Shown: piece after piece, positions 5,442-60,024 of the stretch
Layout: each line of letters starts with the position of its first letter
Position numbering within the stretch: position 1 is the stretch's first letter
DNA from: Bacteroidota bacterium
GTDB taxonomy: Bacteria; Bacteroidota; Ignavibacteria; UBA10030; BY39
Reading direction: 5' to 3'
Length of the DNA stretch: 64,000 nucleotides
Assembly: GCA_030017895.1 (NCBI GenBank)
Contig: JASEGV010000002.1
Location: forward strand, 25,482-89,481
The notes under the pieces: model-generated
Seen by the model: the letters and a program-made list of their open reading frames with translations, nothing else
The model's database searches: none
What the model was told of the DNA's origin: nothing
Position numbers and translations under genes: made by a program

Positions 5442-6191
5442 TTAAGCTTGATAGTTAGCCAAAACCTTTTCGTCTATATCGAAATTAGGATAAACATTCT
5501 GAACATCTTCGTTTTCTTCTAAAGCGTCCATTAGTTTTAGAACTTGTTCGGCATCTTTACCTTCGACCTTTACTAAATTTTCAGGAACCAAAGAAAGTTC
5601 CGCTGATTCTATTGCGATTTTATTTGCTTCGAGAGCTTTTTTAACAGGTTCAAATGTTTCGGGAGTAGTGTTAACTTCGTAGAACTCGTCTTCCACTTTC
5701 AAATCATCGGCGCCCGCATCTAAAATAATTGCGAGTATATCGTCTTCTGTGTAATTTGATTTTGGAATTTGAATAACACCTTTGCGATGGAAGCTCCATG
5801 CAACCGAACCGGCTGTTGCTAATTTACCGTTGTTACGCTCTAACATATGGCGCAGTTCGGAAACAGTTCTGTTTTTATTATCAGTTACCGATTCGATTAT
5901 CAAAGCAACACCACCGGCACCGTATGCTTCGTAAGTAACGTCTTCGTATGAAACACCGGGGAGCTCGCCTGTACCTTTCATAATTGCGCGTTTGATATTA
6001 TCGGCGGGCATATTACTCGCCTTCGCTTTATCGACGGCTAAGCGTAACCGTGGGTTTCCGTTTGGGTCGCCGCCGCCCATCTTGGCAGCGATAGTTATTT
6101 CTTTAATAATTTGTGTAAAAATTTTTCCTCTCTTCGCATCGGTGGAAGCTTTTTTGCGTTTGATGGTTGCCCATTTTGAATGTCCTGACAT
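5442..6191 (-). CDS. yebC: YebC/PmpR family DNA-binding transcriptional regulator
   Basis: 249 aa. MSGHSKWATIKRKK start is the hallmark of the YebC family. It lies adjacent to ruvC, as is common. Confidence 0.9.
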   Translation of the reverse strand: MSGHSKWATIKRKKASTDAKRGKIFTQIIKEITIAAKMGGGDPNGNPRLRLAVDKAKASNMPADNIKRAIMKGTGELPGVSYEDVTYEAYGAGGVALIIESVTDNKNRTVSELRHMLERNNGKLATAGSVAWSFHRKGVIQIPKSNYTEDDILAIILDAGADDLKVEDEFYEVNTTPETFEPVKKALEANKIAIESAELSLVPENLVKVEGKDAEQVLKLMDALEENEDVQNVYPNFDIDEKVLANYQA

Positions 6192-49686: not shown

Positions 49687-50295
49687 TTGAGTAATAAGGA
49701 AAGAGTTTTATTTTCGATCGTCGGTATCGACCTTGCTGGCAGCCCGATGCGGAACACAGGTATTTGTTTACTGAAAGGGAAGAATGTAGTTAAGTATGCG
49801 ACTGTATATTCAGATTCTGAAATAATTTCTTTTGTGGAAGAAGCTAAGCCAGCTCTTGTTGCAATAGATGCGCCATTAAACCTGCCTCCCGGACGAAAAA
49901 ATATTGAAGACAGGAATGGCGAGCATTTCCGTCCGTGCGATAGGGAGTTGTTGAAACGCGGTATCCGGTTCTTTCCGATTACACTTGGTCCAATGCGTCC
50001 TCTAACTGTCCGTGGGATTAAACTGAAAAAAAAATTGCAAAGAAAAGGATACAAGGTCATTGAAATTTACCCCGGTGCCGCTCAGGATGTGTGGGGTATT
50101 CCACGAAAACAAAAAGGACTTCCAAAACTCAGGCGCGGTTTAGAAAAGCTTGGACTAAAAGGTTTGAATAAGGATATGAACGGCGATGAGCTTGATGCTA
50201 TTACTGGGGCATTAACTGGAAGATTATTTTTACTGCGTAAAACTGAAGTGTTAGGGAATTTTAAAGAAGGGGCGATTGTGGTGCCGCAGAAATAA
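49687..50295 (+). CDS. DUF429-family protein (predicted RNase H-fold, RuvC/YqgF-like nuclease)
   Basis: 202 aa. GIDLAGS...GICLL...AIDAPLNLP has the YqgF/RuvC-like acidic-residue pattern. TTG start. Confidence 0.55.
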   Translation: MSNKERVLFSIVGIDLAGSPMRNTGICLLKGKNVVKYATVYSDSEIISFVEEAKPALVAIDAPLNLPPGRKNIEDRNGEHFRPCDRELLKRGIRFFPITLGPMRPLTVRGIKLKKKLQRKGYKVIEIYPGAAQDVWGIPRKQKGLPKLRRGLEKLGLKGLNKDMNGDELDAITGALTGRLFLLRKTEVLGNFKEGAIVVPQK

Positions 50296-50393: not shown

Positions 50394-53300
50394 ATGAAAA
50401 TTAAAACCATGCAATCGGAATCATTATTCCCCATCCTTGAGAACGAACAGCGTTGGGAAACAAAAGGAATATTCTCAGAGCATTATCTACAAACTCGTCT
50501 GAGGGAATCTCATTATTGGCCCAAAGATGAAGATGCCCGTCCAATTTATGATTTCGTTGCTGAATTATGGAAGAAGAGGTTTATAGGACTTTCGAAAGGT
50601 AACGAGGAAACAACTCGGCGTGAATTCCTGGAAAAGATTCTTGAGAAGTTAGGCATTTCATTTTATTCGAACCTCGGATTACCTGAGTCGGAGCGTGCAC
50701 AGACACCAGATTATCTTCTTTTCGAAGATGAAGAAACTAAGAATCGTGTATTCAACGAGGATAATGAAGTAAAACACCAGGCGGCAATCGGTTTGATGGA
50801 AGCCAAAAAAGTTCATCATCCGCTTGATCAAGTTTCGAAGAAGGAAACACCCGGACGTTTTCCACACCAACAGATGAAGGATTATCTGAGTCAAGCAACA
50901 AACAAAACAGGGGAGGCATATTTTAGGTGGGGTATTTTATCAAATGGTAATGTGTGGAGATTATACTGTCGTGATGCTCATCCCTCATCGTATTTTGGAT
51001 TCCATCTTGCAGGACCCGAAGAATATTTTTGCACTTTTGATGACTTTAAAATCTTTATCACCCTTTTCCAGCCGCAGGTCTTTGTAAAAAAAGATGGACG
51101 ATGCGCTCTTGATGAGATACGTGAAGAAGCAATTAGTTTCCAAACAACTCTGGAAGAAGATTTACGTCGCCGTATTTTTGCCGTTGTGCTTGATCTTGCA
51201 AATGGGTTTTGGAAATTCAAAGAAAACAAACTTAGCGAAAGAGATCTTCCGGATCTCTATAACAACTGCTTGATTTTGCTTTACCGTTTGTTATTCATTC
51301 TCTATGCTGAGGGGAGAGGTTTATTGCCTGTGAAGCTTTCAGGTGCCGGTTCTAACAAAAACTATCGAGAGAGATTTTCATTACAAAGATTCAATCTCCG
51401 TCTCAAGAAGGCAACCGAATTCCATTCTGATAATTTTACCGATTTATACGAAGAACTTCTAAAACTATTTCATCTTATCAACGGCGATAAACCTAAACTA
51501 AATAAAGAATGCGATGTTCCAAGATATAACGGCGGACTTTTTCATCCCGGCAACCATTTAAAACTTGAACAATGGCGTGTTGGTGAAAAAGCACTTGCAC
51601 AGGTATTGCGTGATTTGATTTTTAGTGCCGGGCATACGGAGCGCAGTAAACAAGGTGAATTCGAATGGGGTGCTATTGATTATGCCGATTTGGAAGTTCG
51701 ACAACTCGGTGATATTTATGAGGGATTACTTGGTGGTCATATAGAACTTCAGAACGATAAACTTGTCCTTCGCAGTGAAAAAGGAGAACTCCAAATATCG
51801 GGTACTTTCTACACTCCGGATTGGGTCGTACGTTTTCTTGTTGAGAAGACACTCAAACCGCTAATTGACGCAATAGAAAAGAGTGAAGGGGTCTTGAGCG
51901 CTCTGAAGAAGAAAAAGAAAGATAACTCATTCGCACTTAAAGTATTGAAGCTTAACGTTCTAGATAATGCTATGGGTAGCGGACATTTTCTTGTCCGTGC
52001 TACTGAATGGCTTGCCGACCAAATCGTTTATCATCCAACAACAAAATTTCAGATTGAGAATGTGCCACCGGGAATTTCTCAAGAGCAAGCCGAAGTTGCT
52101 TACTGGCGACGGCGCGTTGTTGAAGCATGTATCTACGGTGTAGATTCAAATCCTTTGGCAGTTGAGCTAACGAAACTTTCACTCTGGCTCACGTGTATTG
52201 CTTCGAATGAGCCGTTAAATTTCCTCGATCATCATCTCCGTGCCGGCAATTCATTGATCGGTGCGAAACTTCACGAATTATCCGTGTTACCAATTCATCA
52301 AAAGGAAGAGCAAATACATTTTACATTTGGTAAAAATCTTACAGAAGCAGTAAGTGATGCCATAAAAGAAATTGAAGCTATCGAGGAAGAAGCTTCGACC
52401 GAGATTGATATTGTGAAGAAGAAGGAAGAACGCTGGCGGGATAAAGTTATAAAACGACTCGATCCTTTCAGAGATGTTGCAAACCTCTGGATATCTGCCG
52501 CTTCTGGATTGACCATCAATGAGGCGGAATACACGCAGCTTGCTTCTGGATTTATTACTTCACCGAAACCGCGCTCAAAGGAATTCCAAGAGTTCAAATC
52601 TACACTTGATAAGTTTAAAGATGAATACAAACGCATTACTGACTATTTGATGCCGTTTCACTGGGAGTTAGAATTCCCGGATGTTTTTTTTCACGACGAT
52701 GGAACCATAAAAGACAATCCTGGCTTTGATGCGATTCTTGGAAATCCACCGTACATCTCTACACAAACATCAAGCGGTTTTGAATACCGAAATGCATTTG
52801 AGCAACGGTTCGGTTTCGTTGATGATCTCTATGTACACTTTGTGTTTCAAGGATTTAAGCTACTCCGTAACGGGGGAACTTTTGGCTACATCGTTTCTGA
52901 CACCTTCTTTACGCTTGCAACAAAATTGCGTATGCGCGAGCTTCTCCAGCATAACCGGTTGTTTTACATTGGGCAATGCGATCCATTTACCGCGACGGTG
53001 GATGCTGCAATTTTCGTTGCTGAGAAAAAAGATGCAAAAGAAAATTATGATCTGCATTTCATACAGGCACGTTATAAAACAGACGGTAGCACGCCCGACA
53101 AAGAACTTGTTGAGCTTGCCACGAAGCCAATGCCTCTTCTGATTAACGGCACAGCGCCAATAGAGGTAGGCGGAGGACAGCATCATGTTCTTCATGGAAA
53201 TCAGGGTTGTTTACGTTTGCATCGAATTGGCGTTGATGCGTACCGTTCCGCTGTCAAGTCAACGTTCTTTGAGCCAACAAATGCGATAACTCTTTTATAT

Positions 53301-54680
53301 AATAGATTTAATGAACCACTCAAGAAACTAGTTACCACATGGTGGGAGAAAATTGAAACATCGAAAAAGTATGATGACAATCGCGAAGAAATATTTCGCT
53401 ATCATCAAACACTGAAGCCAGGAGATGTATCACTCGTCGGTTTAATTGCCGATGGTGGACAAGGAATGAGGACGGCAAACAACGGCAGATTTCTTGGTTT
53501 TATTGAGAAAACTGAACAAGCAAAAGATATAGAGCAACGTAGGAAAGAACTTACGCACTTATGGAATATGAACCCCCAAGTCAAAGTACCTTTTGCGAAA
53601 CTGCTTGAAGAAAATGAAGGTGACTTTGAAGCTATTGTTGAACCGTTAAAGAATCAGTTTGATCCTCTCCGAATTTTGGGATTAAAACGTGGAGAAATTT
53701 ATAGGATTGTTCCAAATGAGTTGTTAGCAACACAAGAAGATTTTAACCGTGCTTACGAATTGAGAAAAGCGGAGCTTGAAGAACGATGGAAAGAATCAAA
53801 GGATTTTAAAGCTCCTTACGAAGAGTTGAAGAAAATACACGGCGAAAGGTTTTGTGAGATTTTTCATACTCTTGCAACTCGACTAAAGAAAAAGAAGCTT
53901 GCTATTACACGCCTTGGTGTTCATTCCGGTGAATATTATTTAGACGAGGTAGATGCCCCACGTATTACAACTATCTATAATGGTTTAGATGGTAAACGAG
54001 TTTGGGTTGCATTCCGTAAAGGTGATCCAGAAGGAAATAAATGGACAGATATTGAACCGCTCTACATTAAATGGTCAAATGAGAATGTAAGCTTCTTGCA
54101 CAATAATAGTGGAAGGCCAGAACCCACTATGCCAGTAATCCGAAATGCACATCTGTATTTTACAGAAGGTGTAACCTATACTTTACTTGGCAATCACGTT
54201 GAACTAAAAGCAAAGCTTCAACCCAAATGTGTGTTCGATGCAGGCGCTTCTCGCCTTACACCAAGCGTTAAGGGAATTTCTGCCTACACGTTTTTAGCGG
54301 TGTTGAACAGTAACATTTTTAGTTTCATTATTAGGAAGTTTATCAAGAACACAGCAGCATACGAAATCAACGATCTACGAATGGCACCATTTGTCATCCC
54401 CTCTAAAGACCAAGCCGCTAAACTTGAGACGCTTGCCAAGAGAGCCGTCGAAGCAAAAGAGCTTACGCTTAGAAAACTAGACCCATCGGTAGAGTTAATA
54501 AAATACTCCCGGCAGTTAGTAAAGGAACAGCAAAACGCACCTAAGTATCTCCAACCGCGCCCACAATTGTTATTACTCGATTCTTCAGAAGAATGTCTCC
54601 ACGCCATTGAGCTTGCAGTCCAATGGGAAGTGGAAAAGCTGTACGGCGTAGAAGGCACAGGACCGTTTGAGGAGTTTTAA
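50394..54680 (+). CDS. Single-chain restriction-modification enzyme of Type IIG/IIL architecture. It has an N-terminal PD-(D/E)xK nuclease, an Eco57I/PglX-type gamma-class N6-adenine methyltransferase, and a C-terminal target-recognition domain.
   Basis: 1428 aa. The PD...EAK motif is TPDYLLF(x29)MEAKK at about aa 105-138. Methyltransferase motif X is GTFYTPDWVV (aa 470) and motif I is VLDNAMGSGHFLV (aa 522). The family hallmarks YGVDSNPLAVELTKLSLWL and FHWELEFPDVF are present. Motif IV is NPPY (aa 784), followed by FGYIV. The C-terminal TaqI-C-like target-recognition domain ends with AYTFLAVLNSNIFSFIIRKF. Confidence 0.8.
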   Translation: MKIKTMQSESLFPILENEQRWETKGIFSEHYLQTRLRESHYWPKDEDARPIYDFVAELWKKRFIGLSKGNEETTRREFLEKILEKLGISFYSNLGLPESERAQTPDYLLFEDEETKNRVFNEDNEVKHQAAIGLMEAKKVHHPLDQVSKKETPGRFPHQQMKDYLSQATNKTGEAYFRWGILSNGNVWRLYCRDAHPSSYFGFHLAGPEEYFCTFDDFKIFITLFQPQVFVKKDGRCALDEIREEAISFQTTLEEDLRRRIFAVVLDLANGFWKFKENKLSERDLPDLYNNCLILLYRLLFILYAEGRGLLPVKLSGAGSNKNYRERFSLQRFNLRLKKATEFHSDNFTDLYEELLKLFHLINGDKPKLNKECDVPRYNGGLFHPGNHLKLEQWRVGEKALAQVLRDLIFSAGHTERSKQGEFEWGAIDYADLEVRQLGDIYEGLLGGHIELQNDKLVLRSEKGELQISGTFYTPDWVVRFLVEKTLKPLIDAIEKSEGVLSALKKKKKDNSFALKVLKLNVLDNAMGSGHFLVRATEWLADQIVYHPTTKFQIENVPPGISQEQAEVAYWRRRVVEACIYGVDSNPLAVELTKLSLWLTCIASNEPLNFLDHHLRAGNSLIGAKLHELSVLPIHQKEEQIHFTFGKNLTEAVSDAIKEIEAIEEEASTEIDIVKKKEERWRDKVIKRLDPFRDVANLWISAASGLTINEAEYTQLASGFITSPKPRSKEFQEFKSTLDKFKDEYKRITDYLMPFHWELEFPDVFFHDDGTIKDNPGFDAILGNPPYISTQTSSGFEYRNAFEQRFGFVDDLYVHFVFQGFKLLRNGGTFGYIVSDTFFTLATKLRMRELLQHNRLFYIGQCDPFTATVDAAIFVAEKKDAKENYDLHFIQARYKTDGSTPDKELVELATKPMPLLINGTAPIEVGGGQHHVLHGNQGCLRLHRIGVDAYRSAVKSTFFEPTNAITLLYNRFNEPLKKLVTTWWEKIETSKKYDDNREEIFRYHQTLKPGDVSLVGLIADGGQGMRTANNGRFLGFIEKTEQAKDIEQRRKELTHLWNMNPQVKVPFAKLLEENEGDFEAIVEPLKNQFDPLRILGLKRGEIYRIVPNELLATQEDFNRAYELRKAELEERWKESKDFKAPYEELKKIHGERFCEIFHTLATRLKKKKLAITRLGVHSGEYYLDEVDAPRITTIYNGLDGKRVWVAFRKGDPEGNKWTDIEPLYIKWSNENVSFLHNNSGRPEPTMPVIRNAHLYFTEGVTYTLLGNHVELKAKLQPKCVFDAGASRLTPSVKGISAYTFLAVLNSNIFSFIIRKFIKNTAAYEINDLRMAPFVIPSKDQAAKLETLAKRAVEAKELTLRKLDPSVELIKYSRQLVKEQQNAPKYLQPRPQLLLLDSSEECLHAIELAVQWEVEKLYGVEGTGPFEEF

Positions 54681-54732
54681 ATGAGCAAGCGCGGGAAATA
54701 ATTTTATCTCTATACCTGAAAGGAGGATAGGA

Positions 54733-55554
54733 ATGGAAAACAATAAAGTCGCTTTATTCAAAGGAAGACAAATTCGGAGAATAATTCATAACAATGAATG
54801 GTGGTTTGTAGTTGAAGATGTAGTACTCGCACTGACTGATAGTTTAAATCCGAAAGACTACATAAATAAGATTAGACGACGTGATCCGGAACTTGCCAAA
54901 GGGTATGGACAAATTGTCCATACCCTTCCCATCTTAACAGAGGGCGGAATGCAACAAATGAATTGTGCTAACACCGAGGGCATCTTCCGTATAATTCAAT
55001 CCATCCCGTCGCCCAAAGCCGAACCGTTTAAACGCTGGTTAGCAAAAGTCGGTTACGAGCGCGTTCAGGAAATTGAAAACCCGGAATTGGCAACAAAACG
55101 CACAAGAATGCTATACAAGCTCAAAGGATATCCGGAAGATTGGATAGAAAAACGGATGCGGGGAATTGCAATCCGTGAGGAACTTACAGACGAATGGCAA
55201 AAGCGTGGGGCTGAAGAACAAAAAGATTATAAAATTTTGACTGCCGAAATATCGAAAGCAACTTTCGGTGTTACACCATCGCAATATAAAAAACTGAAGA
55301 GATTAAAACGGGAAAACCTCCGCGACCACATGGACGACCTCGAATTGATTTTTACGATGTTGGGTGAGCGGGCTACGACTGAAATTCACCGGACAGAAAA
55401 TTCACACGGTGTTCCTAAATTAAAATCGGATGCAAAAGCCGGTGGAGATATTGCCGGCGGCGCAAGGAAGAAGTTAGAAAAAAGGTTAGGCAAATCTATC
55501 GTTTCAAAGAAGAACTATTTACCAAAATTAAAGCGGCGGAAATTACCCCGTTAG
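54733..55554 (+). CDS. Bro-N domain protein of the DinD (DNA-damage-inducible protein D) family
   Basis: 273 aa. The N-terminal Bro-N region is FKGRQIRRIIHNNEWWFVVEDVVLAL. The C-terminal half resembles E. coli DinD (KRWLAKVGYERVQE..., KLKRLKRENLRDHMDDLEL). Confidence 0.65.
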   Translation: MENNKVALFKGRQIRRIIHNNEWWFVVEDVVLALTDSLNPKDYINKIRRRDPELAKGYGQIVHTLPILTEGGMQQMNCANTEGIFRIIQSIPSPKAEPFKRWLAKVGYERVQEIENPELATKRTRMLYKLKGYPEDWIEKRMRGIAIREELTDEWQKRGAEEQKDYKILTAEISKATFGVTPSQYKKLKRLKRENLRDHMDDLELIFTMLGERATTEIHRTENSHGVPKLKSDAKAGGDIAGGARKKLEKRLGKSIVSKKNYLPKLKRRKLPR

Positions 55555-55654
55555 ATGCTTTGGCAAGTAAACCGCAGCTTACATTAATGGAGAAAGAATA
55601 CAATGAAAGTAATGCGGCTAAAGCATTTATTTTTTAAATTCCTAGCGAAGCAAA

Positions 55655-57031
55655 TTATCCAATATCAGAATTATCTTCTCTTTCCAACCCATACTTCTTA
55701 ATCTTACTGTGCAGGTGGCTTCTCTCGATATCGAGTGCTTTGGCGGTTTTACTTTTATTCCATTTGTGTAAATCGAGTAAGCGTTTTATGTACAGCGCTT
55801 CCGACCTATTCTTGAACTCCTGAAAATTATGACTCGTCGAAACTATATCATCAAGAACGCCCCCTTTTGCGCCACCCACAGTTTCGAGTGCATCAACATC
55901 TATCGTATTTCCAGAAGCCATTATTACAAGCCGTTCAATTATATTCCGAAGCTCACGAACATTACCGCTCCATCCAAGTCCATTAAGATAATCTAATGCC
56001 CTGTCGGAAATTTTCTTTGGTGCAAATCCGTTGCGCTTGCAAATATCTTCTGCGAACGCTTTGGCTAATATTGGAATGTCTTCACGTCTTTCACGTAGGG
56101 AAGGCACGTGTATAGGGATAACATTCAGACGATGGTATAAATCTTCTCTGAAATTACCTTTTTTAATTTCCTCAATCAAATTTTTATTTGTTGCTGCAAT
56201 TACACGAACATCAACAGAAATTAATCTATTGCCGCCAACTCTCTCAATTTTTCCTTCTTCGAGTACACGTAAAACTTTTGCTTGAGCAGCTAAACTCATG
56301 TCCCCGATTTCATCGAGGAAAATTGTGCCGCCGTCGGCTTGCTCGAACTTACCAATGCGCTGCGCAGTTGCGCCTGTGAATGAACCTTTCTCGTGTCCGA
56401 ACAACTCCGATTCAATCAAATCGTGAGGAATAGCAGCACAGTTTACTTCGACCATTGTTTTTGCGGAACGCTTGCTAAAACGATGGATTGCTTTAGCTAC
56501 TAATTCTTTGCCGGTTCCGTTTTCGCCGGTTATCAGAACTCGTGTGTCGGTCGGAGCTATTCGCTCAATCAGCGATAATATCTTTTTAAGCTTCTGGCTC
56601 TCTCCTAAAATTTTATCTTTACCTTCAAGTTTCTGACGGATTGTTTCTATTTCAGAAGTTAATTTTTTATGCTCGAGAGCGTTGCGAAGCGTTACAAGCA
56701 ATTTGTCTCTATCGAGCGGTTTGGTTAAAAAATCGAAGGCGCCTAATTTTGTTGCCTCGACGGCAGTCTCGATTGTGCCGTGCCCGGATATCATTATTAT
56801 AGGCAAGTCGGTATGCCGGCTTTTTATAGTTTGTAATACTTCGATGCCATCCATACCCGGCATTTTTACATCGAGAAGAACAGCGTCAATTTGATTTTCA
56901 GGATTATTCAGAGCAGCTAATCCTTTCGATCCATCTTCAGCAAGCATTACTTCATATTTTTCGTAGGTGAGTATCATTTTAACTGCATCGCGGATACTCT
57001 TCTCATCGTCAATTATTAAGATTGTTTTCAT
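55655..57031 (-). CDS. Sigma-54-dependent response regulator (NtrC family)
   Basis: 458 aa. REC domain (ILIIDDE...[11 protein letters not shown]), AAA+ domain with GENGTGKE and GSFTGA, and a C-terminal HTH. Confidence 0.9.
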
Positions 57032-59634: not shown

Positions 59635-60024
59635 TTAATTAATAATTCTTTCAGGATCTTTATTAAGTTCACGTAAACGCAACGCATAACTATGACTTTT
59701 ATCCCATTCTTTGAATTTGCGAACTCTCAGAAAGTCTCTGTAATCAGTTATCAGCTCTTCCAAACTTGCGCGGGCAACATTTGTGAGTTTGATTTCTGTT
59801 TCTTTGGATGTCCCGGAAGCCATGCTGGCTTCCACAATGTTTTGTTTTCCAGAGCGGGCAGCTTGTATCATTTGGTCGATTGTGCGATCTCCTCTAGAAA
59901 AAAATCTCTTACAAAAATAAACCGTACCATCATAAACAATTTCAGATTTTTTGTATGAAAGCAATTTTTTGTAGCCGCCGTGTACCGGTATAAAACCATT
60001 CGGAGAAGAGTGATTACCTAGCAT
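59635..60024 (-). CDS. Four-helix-bundle protein (23S rRNA intervening-sequence protein / Avd family, TIGR02436)
   Basis: 129 aa. TIDQMIQAARSGKQNIVEASMASGTSKETEIKLTNVARASLEELITDYRDFL matches the family consensus. Confidence 0.75.
   Translation of the reverse strand: MLGNHSSPNGFIPVHGGYKKLLSYKKSEIVYDGTVYFCKRFFSRGDRTIDQMIQAARSGKQNIVEASMASGTSKETEIKLTNVARASLEELITDYRDFLRVRKFKEWDKSHSYALRLRELNKDPERIIN

Follow-up and report, generated by a model that had tools for sequence, protein, structure and literature searches.

The window, by which we mean the whole 64,000-nt stretch of DNA analysed, carries a 273-aa open reading frame (ORF) on the forward strand behind a gene for a 1428-aa restriction-modification (RM) enzyme, both oriented in the same direction (Table 1). 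The ORF listing gave exactly the extent and strand claimed in a preliminary description of this DNA, and the upstream frame ends at 54680, which leaves the 52-nt gap after the RM stop codon that had also been described. The upstream enzyme matches the Pfam models Eco57I (E 3e-28) and N6_Mtase (4.5e-7), has DrmMI as its best PADLOC match (1.4e-93) with REase_MTase_IIG at 4e-43, and contains a PD(106)...E(136)AK nuclease motif at residues 106-138. Among the window ORFs, no DISARM genes were found near it other than this DrmMI-like match. Judged from its sequence, the enzyme combines a PD-(D/E)XK motif, a predicted gamma-class N6-adenine methyltransferase and a C-terminal specificity region in one polypeptide, the arrangement that defines type IIG enzymes. 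On its downstream side the 273-aa ORF is followed by a possible terminator hairpin, not called by a consensus terminator scan, and by a convergent response-regulator gene.

Table 1. Features of the RM enzyme-DinD locus, in window coordinates.
Feature	Position	Strand	Basis
Type IIG-like restriction-modification fusion enzyme, 1428 aa	50394..54680	+	Pfam, PADLOC, nuclease motif
Spacer, 52 nt	54681..54732	+	
Conserved cassette leader, 48 nt	54685-54732	+	Matches 3' end of HKD-SNF2 helicase gene in related operons
DinD-family / PADLOC PDC-S13 gene, 273 aa, ATG start	54733..55554	+	ORF listing
Bro-N DNA-binding domain, residues 13-105	54769..55047	+	Pfam PF02498
Hypervariable mosaic segment, about codons 25-75	54805..54957	+	Nucleotide identity, entropy
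Perfect 14+1+14 palindrome AAGGGTATGGACAA-A-TTGTCCATACCCTT, codons 56-65	54899..54927	.	Repeat search
All-helical C-terminal 'DinD' domain, residues ~110-252, DdrC-CTD-like	55060..55488	+	Model helices, profile alignments
Possible terminator: long imperfect hairpin, then UUAUUUUUU	55554..55637	+	RNAfold -22.6 kcal/mol, z only -1.4; weak evidence
Sigma-54 response-regulator gene, convergent with DinD-like gene	55655-57031	-	

A profile search with PF02498 bore out the N-terminal Bro-N domain that had been proposed for the 273-aa protein (E 3e-14; 53.8 bits where the Pfam gathering score is 25.6; profile positions 1-92 of 96). Over its full length the protein matches the PADLOC PDC-S13 model PDLC04920 (E 5e-109, residues 1-268 on profile positions 1-272 of 286) and PHROG 15286 (1e-83); NCBIfam holds no family for it, and no recognisable effector domain (nuclease, ATPase) was detected. 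More than 8000 homologues were found in many phyla, the best 120 at 79-100% amino acid identity. The preliminary description had likened the C-terminal half to E. coli DinD, and at profile level this resemblance stands: the window protein matches PDLC04919, the model to which E. coli DinD itself belongs (2.4e-121), at residues 148-235 (E 1e-4), and residues 122-250 of E. coli DinD in turn match PDLC04920 (E 2.2e-16). This homology is visible only to profiles, since direct BLASTP between the two proteins was not significant (E 0.05-0.5). The limitation to the C-terminal half did not survive, because E. coli DinD also has an N-terminal Bro-N domain (E 1.5e-7) and the whole 273-aa protein is therefore DinD-like in architecture. 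The ORF is a full-length member of the DinD family (PDC-S13), made up of a Bro-N and a helical C-terminal domain. E. coli DinD (PcsA) is of nearly the same length (274 aa), has the same two-domain architecture and falls in the same PADLOC family by reciprocal model matches; it differs in its sub-model, in the lack of significant pairwise similarity and in setting, as dinD stands alone on the chromosome and has a LexA box (CTGT-N8-ACAG, positions 5698-5717 of locus L001), whereas the window gene stands behind an RM enzyme, with no LexA-type control recognised in its 52-nt leader. PDC-S13 is listed by PADLOC as a single-gene phage-defence candidate, PDC families having been picked for their embedding in defence operons; the DinD family qualifies because it is often found within DNA-cutting immune operons, and the window copy has such a position beside its type IIG enzyme. 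The name PDC-S13 was not found in the papers and PADLOC embedding-preprint supplements searched, and papers in the searched literature that pair dinD with defence use dinD-lacZ as an SOS reporter only.

Proteins with Bro-N or KilA-type domains had been described beforehand as usually phage anti-repressors or DNA-binding modulators; the first of these assignments is unlikely for this family. The N-terminal Bro-N domain is shared with phage Ant, but the window protein has no ANT, KilAC or P22_AR domain (Pfam, E<=0.01), Ant families of PHROG match only residues 1-119 (1e-10 to 1e-7), which is the Bro-N part, and the window offers no prophage context. Relatives occur in only 4 of 50,697 phage records, all of them short unannotated contigs.

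The AlphaFold2 model of the protein (pLDDT 90.7) comprises a DHD-like N-terminal and a helical C-terminal domain, with helices at 94-252. Among solved structures, the only Foldseek matches at E<=1e-3 were six chains of DdrC (E 3.9e-7 to 4.8e-5 over ~245 columns), a protein of the Deinococcus damage response whose homodimer recognises nicks and double-strand breaks and bridges them (PMC11347143). DdrC of Deinococcus radiodurans (PDB 7qvb, 7udi, 8u0g) likewise pairs a DHD/Bro-N-like N-terminal with a helical C-terminal domain, and the rmsd between model and DdrC is large (8-16 A) because the domain orientations differ. A profile search of PDB sequences placed DdrC in the top three positions (E 0.04-0.08) with nothing else near significance, profile A3 positions 139-254 aligning with DdrC 114-223 (E 0.04); hhalign returned a consistent register (E 0.0014-0.0026) at a probability of only 11-17%, and E. 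coli DinD alone as query gave no match. Sequence support for homology to DdrC is weak. Both proteins belong to DNA-damage-response families, but identity is ~10-12%, the N-terminal domain of DdrC is shorter, and DdrC has been called Deinococcus-specific, with no known occurrence in immune operons. In the literature searched, DdrC and DinD are not named together in any paper.

The spacer upstream of the DinD-like gene contains a TAATTTTA motif (54701-54708) and a GGAGG ribosome-binding site (54722-54726) 6 nt 5' of the ATG. A consensus scan, ill-suited to Bacteroidota promoters, detected neither a sigma-70-type promoter nor a terminator in this junction. Given the common strand, the 52-nt gap, the ribosome-binding site and the absence of a junction terminator in that scan, we infer that the gene shares a transcript with the RM enzyme, in line with the earlier suggestion that this was plausible; an internal promoter may lie within the conserved leader. 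The leader marks a sharp boundary: blastn homology to the related operons L083-L085 begins at 54685, and homology to the RM orthologue L092 stops at 54678. Elsewhere these 48 nt have their counterpart at the 3' end of a helicase gene, which points to transplantation of a cassette, and the DinD-like gene behaves as a single-gene cassette joined directly after the type IIG stop codon. A transposable element was considered and rejected, as no transposase or integrase genes and no inverted, direct or terminal repeats were found flanking the cassette. The gene is itself a 5'/3' mosaic. Nucleotide identity to locus L002 is 53-70% at codons 25-75 and 84-100% past codon 75, identity to L085 is 91-98% at codons 25-75, and nucleotide entropy peaks at codons 31-75, the rest of the protein being strongly conserved.

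Such mobility could be that of an anti-restriction, anti-SOS or selfish hitch-hiker, an inhibitor of RecA or of DNA ends that spreads horizontally and does not serve, or even dampens, the RM enzyme, by a logic like that of PsiB/Ard in plasmid leading regions. Besides the cassette-like boundaries and the mosaicism, this reading can draw on the strong conservation of the protein in phyla far removed from one another and even in archaea, a sign of frequent horizontal transfer, and on a plasmid copy near genes for a zincin-like metallopeptidase (which we take to be ArdC-like), DUF4942 and RhuM. E. coli DinD, moreover, reportedly inhibits RecA filaments. An invader-borne anti-defence gene would not, however, be expected to be as rare as this family is on plasmids (21 of 72,556) and in phages (4 of 50,697), the cassette has none of the flanking signatures of an element, and copies within RM and CRISPR operons of hosts have the same strand as their neighbours and are translationally coupled to them. 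We consider a hitch-hiker very unlikely.

Conservation of the specific gene pair was a check proposed in the preliminary description, and its outcome was divided. RM-enzyme orthologues (67-90% identity) were found by protein search in unrelated chromosomal contexts, while a metagenome scan with the enzyme as query gave no relative. All four distinct orthologue contexts lack the DinD-like gene, and conservation does not extend to the specific pair; the slot 3' of the enzyme is occupied elsewhere by unrelated cargo (M78/HTH with DUF4411, DUF4325 and others), and next to orthologous RM genes ORF6N and KilA-N proteins take up similar positions. The closest relatives of the DinD-like protein (81-96% amino acid identity), in contrast, lie in other RM-type operons in 7 of 7 distinct contexts, so the RM link holds at class level. 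Their operons are of the HKD-SNF2/type IIG kind, where 2-nt gaps separate the gene from its HKD-SNF2 and type IIG neighbours, or of type III, where it lies between mod and res; other relatives follow N6_N4 methylases, a more distant one has cas4 on one side and cas1 on the other in a type I-B CRISPR-Cas system, and one metagenome-assembled genome has three copies, each adjoining a different RM-type gene. Across the family, 10 of 77 genome loci (a lower-bound count) are beside immune genes and most of the 77 are solo, many with housekeeping genes as neighbours; an RM-independent function is therefore the rule. RM/Cas-like genes nevertheless make up 4.6% of genes within +-2 positions against 0.5% at >=5 positions (Fisher p 1.2e-4).

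These contexts bear on whether the two genes are neighbours by chance, through recombination that brought a widespread DNA-damage-response gene next to an RM gene with no functional link in the genome of the window. The missing pair in the orthologous contexts, the variable cargo of the downstream slot and the prevalence of solo members would all fit, but the uniform RM setting of the closest clade and the enrichment at adjacent positions would not, and nor would the published hsdS fusions or the PADLOC HsdS model that contains a DinD domain. We therefore judge chance placement quite unlikely. The same literature corrects the statement that the arrangement is not a described one: an active type I system has a dinD homologue as a fusion with hsdS (PMC4996451), a dinD/RhuM-domain CDS has been recorded between type I core genes (PMC9881135), and the PADLOC PDC-S13 match of the window protein leads to the same correction. 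The closest general parallel is with genes embedded in RM, BREX, DISARM or Hma operons ('guilt-by-embedding'), of which PrrC in type I RM is the classic case. These too are single accessory genes on the same strand with tight spacing, and the DinD-like gene similarly recurs inside or at the end of RM operons of unrelated types. PrrC is almost exclusively embedded, whereas the DinD-like family is mostly solo, has type IIG, type III and CRISPR-Cas hosts, and lacks a recognisable effector domain.

The hypervariable segment of the gene contains the perfect palindrome listed in Table 1. Synonymous-codon entropy drops to 0.43 at the palindrome against 0.83-0.94 elsewhere in the gene, and in an alignment of 83 sequences 88% of its cells are paired, compared with 65.6% when shuffled (0/500) and 41-52% when slid. 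Both sides have changed in 11 of the 12 pairs; these compensatory changes alter the protein and range from CPR bacteria to E. coli, where dinD (about codons 56-69), like plasmid homologues, has a palindrome at the same codons. The alignment indicates that the palindrome is conserved family-wide by compensatory change and is under selection. It is lineage-specific, symmetric on both strands and situated in the hypervariable part of the DNA-binding domain, and it is present equally in solo copies, among them E. coli dinD with no RM partner. Propionibacterium phage E6 Ant has, at the corresponding place, a perfect 13+1+13 palindrome that shares the outer arms. Neither the palindrome nor its half-site has a further copy in the window, Rfam has no family there, and the literature searched contains no description of an intragenic palindrome in dinD; the dinD antisense site reported in a tisAB paper is at the 3' end of dinD, away from it. 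The alignment does not favour an RNA-only hairpin: on the sense strand, G.U pairs (26) show no clear excess over A.C pairs (20), and we also count against it that complementarity reaches the 1-nt centre in 59 of 83 sequences. Readings of the hairpin as a frameshift signal, an internal start or a terminator were dropped for want of a slippery site, a conserved internal Met and a U-tract. The palindrome probably acts in cis, as a DNA element linked to the variable DNA-binding region of the protein itself. The ddrC gene has no comparable palindrome at the equivalent place, so this element lends no support to the DdrC link.

A dyad-symmetric site tightly linked to a gene for a Bro-N DNA-binding protein is what a transcriptional controller of the RM operon would have, the protein acting as an analogue of a C-protein or anti-repressor that binds its operator and times or balances R and M; copies frequently lie in the middle, flanked by R-type and M-type genes, and the ORF6N and KilA-N proteins beside orthologous RM genes are similarly placed. 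The position of the dyad speaks against this role: C proteins are small HTH proteins whose dyad operator (C-box) precedes their own gene or the R gene, but the only dyad here lies inside the CDS and not at a promoter, with no second copy in the window, and it is equally present in RM-unlinked copies. Known controller proteins also have nothing like the large DdrC-like C-terminal domain, high conservation of the protein extends to operons whose promoters and enzyme types are unrelated, and an HTH_3-type domain, looked for with Pfam as the mark of C proteins, is missing. We rate a controller as very unlikely too.

A second reading of the palindrome comes from BstA, which combines a KilA-N-like DNA-binding domain with a cognate, DNA-based and lineage-specific aba element that overlaps its own CDS (PMC8585504). 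By analogy, the DinD-like protein could be an autonomous single-gene abortive-infection or replication-blocking defence, in which Bro-N binds invading DNA, the palindrome is an aba-like self-immunity element and RM adjacency is co-location. Its listing as a single-gene phage-defence candidate, the solo majority of copies and a lineage-specific, two-strand-symmetric element in a hypervariable DNA-binding segment agree with this, as does the N-terminal position of a KilA-N/Bro-N-kind domain in both proteins. The analogy is incomplete, however: aba runs across the start codon and bears terminal direct repeats in place of a palindrome, the C-terminal domain of BstA is, as far as tested, unrelated to that of the DinD-like protein, and BstA is prophage-borne, whereas the DinD-like family is almost absent from phages. 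No family member has a reported defence phenotype, E. coli dinD being a conserved, dispensable chromosomal SOS gene with no known phage phenotype (PMC2577331), and the 2-nt operon junctions between R and M genes suggest functional coupling over mere co-location. Autonomous defence is accordingly rather unlikely in our estimation.

The 273-aa protein is most likely a DNA-break-binding accessory or second-layer factor, as we infer from its predicted fold and its contexts. The full explanation, that of a DinD/PDC-S13 cassette with a DdrC-like fold which serves DNA-cleaving immunity in this capacity, is one we favour tentatively and place a little short of an even chance. The gene would be transcribed together with the RM enzyme, and the protein, as a dimer, would bind DNA discontinuities made by the nuclease. 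Once bound, and in keeping with the RecA inhibition reported for E. coli DinD, it would modulate RecA-dependent recombination at these discontinuities, with the outcome either that cut invader DNA is not rescued or that damage from self-restriction is limited. It would be a generic factor for DNA-cleaving immunity and no dedicated partner of the type IIG enzyme in the window. Standing against a break-binding accessory are the location of most relatives away from immune genes, the RM-enzyme orthologues that do without the gene, and the weak sequence support for DdrC.

A wider conjecture, which we think unlikely, is that DinD, DdrC and the PDC-S13 proteins embedded in RM and CRISPR operons form one ancient break-sensor family, and that the palindrome of DinD/PDC-S13 genes is a cognate element, recognised in an aba-like manner or as a cruciform or hairpin, that marks the own replicon against foreign or broken DNA. 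If this were true, the position of the site within the specificity-coding segment would prevent its genetic separation from the specificity in the DinD/PDC-S13 branch, though not in ddrC. For annotation, the label 'prophage antirepressor' is unsuitable for DinD/PDC-S13 genes. DinD has been an SOS reporter for decades while its function has stayed unsettled, and its intragenic palindrome is an unexplained, easily mutable handle that is accessible in E. coli. The DdrC-like predicted fold offers DinD and PDC-S13 one concrete activity, the recognition of nicks and double-strand breaks, and such break recognition is a possible reason for the recurrence of this family in DNA-cutting operons.

As the preliminary description had stated, a same-strand gene follows the 1428-aa RM ORF after a 52-nt gap (RM end at 54680), and its product joins an N-terminal Bro-N domain (residues 13 to 105; Pfam, E 3e-14) to a DinD-like C-terminal half, in which no Pfam domain was found. 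The gene is real and was correctly described. No NCBIfam model matched the protein, and the full-length sequence matched PADLOC model PDLC04920 (E 5e-109) and PHROG 15286 (1e-83; no function annotated). It is an additional member of PDC-S13, a catalogued, uncharacterised family of phage-defence candidates, for which autonomous defence is a rival to any function tied to the RM enzyme. BLASTP found no significant similarity between the window protein and Escherichia coli DinD. The latter also has a Bro-N domain, and matches PDLC04919 of PDC-S13 (2.4e-121), PDLC04920 over residues 122 to 250 (2.2e-16) and a PADLOC type I specificity-subunit model with a DinD-like N-terminal part. The two proteins have their whole architecture in common, and the earlier domain description, though right, understates their likeness.

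From an alignment of 50 sequences, AlphaFold2 gave a model (mean pLDDT 90.7) with a beta/alpha domain (residues 6 to 89) and helices (94 to 252). Six DdrC chains were its only Foldseek matches at E<=1e-3 (E 3.9e-7 to 4.8e-5, probability 1.00, ~245 columns). The family profile retrieved DdrC from PDB sequences at E 0.04 to 0.08, and hhalign against DdrC gave the identical register (E ~0.002) with a probability of only 11 to 17%. Remote homology of the window protein to DdrC is probable, and shown only at the level of the fold. DdrC acts as a homodimer: it binds to nicks and to the ends of double-strand breaks, bridges pairs of lesions, and compacts DNA or circularises it. The study describing it identified no informative relatives (PMC11347143); no joint mention of DdrC and DinD was found in the literature searched.

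Coordinates of features in the window and in compared loci (L001, E. coli K-12 dinD locus; L008, L083, L084 and L087, other loci with a DinD-like gene; L097 and L098, plasmid homologues)
Feature	Location	Strand	Remark
DUF429 protein gene	49687-50295	+	202 aa; 98 nt 5' of RM gene
GGAGG before DinD-like ORF	54722-54726	+	
DinD-like ORF	54733-55554	+	273 aa
Perfect 14+1+14 palindrome	54899-54927		codons 56-65, in Bro-N coding region
129-aa ORF	59635-60024	-	
HKD(PLD)+SNF2 helicase, DinD-like gene, type IIG RM operon	L083:6795-14274; L084:6861-14112; L087:3807-12553; L008		
DinD-family gene between cas4 and cas1 of type I-B CRISPR-Cas	L098:5995-6891		45% identical; Arcobacter cloacae plasmid pACLO
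E. coli K-12 dinD	L001:5761-6585		
Strongest palindrome in E. coli dinD	L001:5934-5965		
DinD-family plasmid neighbourhood	L097:1-5489		Haliscomenobacter plasmid pHALHY01

The RM enzyme (window positions 50394 to 54680) has Eco57I/N6_Mtase domains (Pfam), matches type IIG and DrmMI models (PADLOC) and carries a PD..EAK motif at residues 106 to 138, indicative of a type IIG-like fusion enzyme; no further DISARM or BREX genes were seen nearby. A DUF429 protein gene precedes it on the same strand. A protein-collection search did not find the exact 1428-aa entry (top full-length match 77% identical), whereas its DinD-like neighbour is an exact NCBI entry; in the source record the RM gene may be a pseudogene or a split annotation.

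Orthologues of the RM enzyme (77%, 90%, 80% and 67% identity) occupy four unrelated chromosomal contexts, in none of which a six-frame HMM search found a DinD-like gene. Their 3' cargo consists of Peptidase_M78/HTH and DUF4411 genes, of genes for a 281-aa protein and DUF4325, or of genes for 325-aa and 164-aa proteins, and the variety in the slot behind this enzyme (L090 to L096) suggests a hot spot where accessory genes are exchanged. One orthologue (L090/L091) has an ORF6N gene (KilA-N superfamily) immediately 5' of it, and another (L094) has one nearby. As a partner of this enzyme the window gene is not conserved, and conservation of the pair holds at the class level only, relatives being found inside other RM-type operons. 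Relatives 86 to 96% identical are the middle gene, with 2-nt gaps, between HKD+Snf2 helicase (PADLOC C3a139, 8.7e-50) and type IIG enzyme (5e-255) genes, a helicase-nuclease and type IIG pairing that may itself be an RM variant without prior description. This operon is inserted 3' of a zinc-ADH gene in L084/L085 and L087 to L089, with an ACPS gene on its far side in L084, L087 and L089 and an IetA-like AAA ATPase next after it in L087 to L089; the flanks of L083 differ. Elsewhere the DinD-like gene follows an N6_N4 methylase gene after 12 nt (L002), lies between type III mod (2e-225) and res, or has Cas7, Cas4 or Cas12a/Cpf1 as direct neighbours (Pfam counts), and a single MAG holds three copies, each with a different RM-type neighbour (L002, L008, L086). 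Chance adjacency is a rival explanation here. Many neighbours are housekeeping genes, above all in CPR genomes, and the most recurrent neighbour family occurs at no more than 7 of 77 genome loci. An RM or Cas gene lies within two genes at 10 or more of the 77 (a lower-bound count), and such genes make up 4.6% of near genes compared with 0.5% of those at least five positions away (p 1.2e-4). The preliminary description had taken the arrangement for undescribed, a claim that published cases do not support: an hsdS fused to a dinD homologue still functions as a specificity subunit (PMC4996451), and a dinD/RhuM-domain CDS has been listed between type I core genes (PMC9881135). The position class is already known for PDC-S13, and the window is distinctive in that the host is type IIG and the gene stands at the end of the operon.

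Window positions 54685 to 55535 are about 90 to 91% identical (blastn) to L083 to L085, the match starting 48 nt before the ATG, in what is there the 3' end of the helicase ORF. Similarity to the RM orthologue locus L092 ends at 54678, two bases short of the stop-codon end, placing the joint within 54680 to 54685. Codons 25 to 75 resemble L084/L085 and the remainder is closest to L002, the final codons and stop being L002-like, not L084-like. The gene is a recombinant mosaic, transplanted as a cassette about the size of its ORF; the cassette showed neither terminal repeats nor a transposase or integrase gene.

A word-indexed search returned at least 8000 matches, the best 120 of which are 79 to 100% identical (all except one at least 80%) and include as named sources Bacteroidota, Patescibacteria, Omnitrophota, Elusimicrobiota, Brocadiia and one Altiarchaeales archaeon. 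An exhaustive search of 50%-identity representatives gave 654 clusters at E<=1e-30. Relatives are rare in phages (only 4 of 50,697 records) and on plasmids (only 21 of 72,556), and the frequent label 'prophage antirepressor' is therefore misleading; a transcriptional controller is a further rival reading of the gene. On pHALHY01 the DinD-family gene lies near RhuM family, SLOG, DUF4942 and zincin-like metallopeptidase genes, the last possibly ArdC-like, a set reminiscent of anti-restriction or leading regions; the DinD-like gene has as another rival explanation that it is an anti-restriction or selfish gene.

Beyond the established family identity, predicted fold, recurrent embedding in DNA-cutting immune operons, cassette transplantation and selection on the palindrome, we propose that the DinD-like gene would be co-transcribed with the RM gene, and that its product would bind nuclease-made DNA discontinuities and modulate RecA-dependent processing. 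The last step draws partly on E. coli DinD, which reportedly inhibits RecA filaments. The effect could be to reinforce restriction or to protect the host.

When 83 coding sequences were compared, the palindrome codons had a synonymous-codon entropy of 0.43, versus 0.83 to 0.94 everywhere else. In a 12-pair structure 88% of cells are paired, compared with 65.6% in shuffles (0/500) and 41 to 52% with the partner slid; both-side changes occur in 11 of the 12 pairs, with 199 compensatory cells against 68 expected. Lineage-specific arms differ widely (for example AAGGGTATGGAC, GGGTGGGGGC, GTTGTCGAC, CAACCGTTCCC and CAACCTATGGAC), and arm changes alter the encoded amino acids. On the sense strand G.U pairs (26) are not more frequent than A.C pairs (20), and in 59 of the 83 sequences the dyad reaches a 1-nt centre. 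A hairpin acting purely as RNA is therefore less favoured than an element at the DNA level or homogenisation through template switching, although as RNA it would still fold stably (-25.7 kcal/mol, z -3.7). No Rfam family was found at the palindrome and no second copy within the 64-kb window. Elsewhere in the window lies a 129-aa ORF, whose product may resemble the four-helix-bundle proteins that 23S rRNA intervening sequences encode. The nearest precedent for the palindrome, by analogy only, is aba, the cognate DNA-based element that overlaps the CDS of BstA, a protein with a KilA-N-like domain. Phage Ant genes vary (palindrome present in Propionibacterium phage E6, absent in two others, weak in one), and ddrC has no such palindrome. 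The strongest palindrome lies at equivalent codons in plasmid homologues 40 to 51% identical (L097 to L100) and in E. coli dinD (TGACCATTTCGAGGA..TCCTCGATATGGTCA), and all DinD-family genes examined have it at codons ~56 to 69 with compensatory upkeep. Two results extend to the whole family, E. coli DinD included, and add to the interest of the finding: the fold resembling that of DdrC and the palindrome conserved inside the gene.
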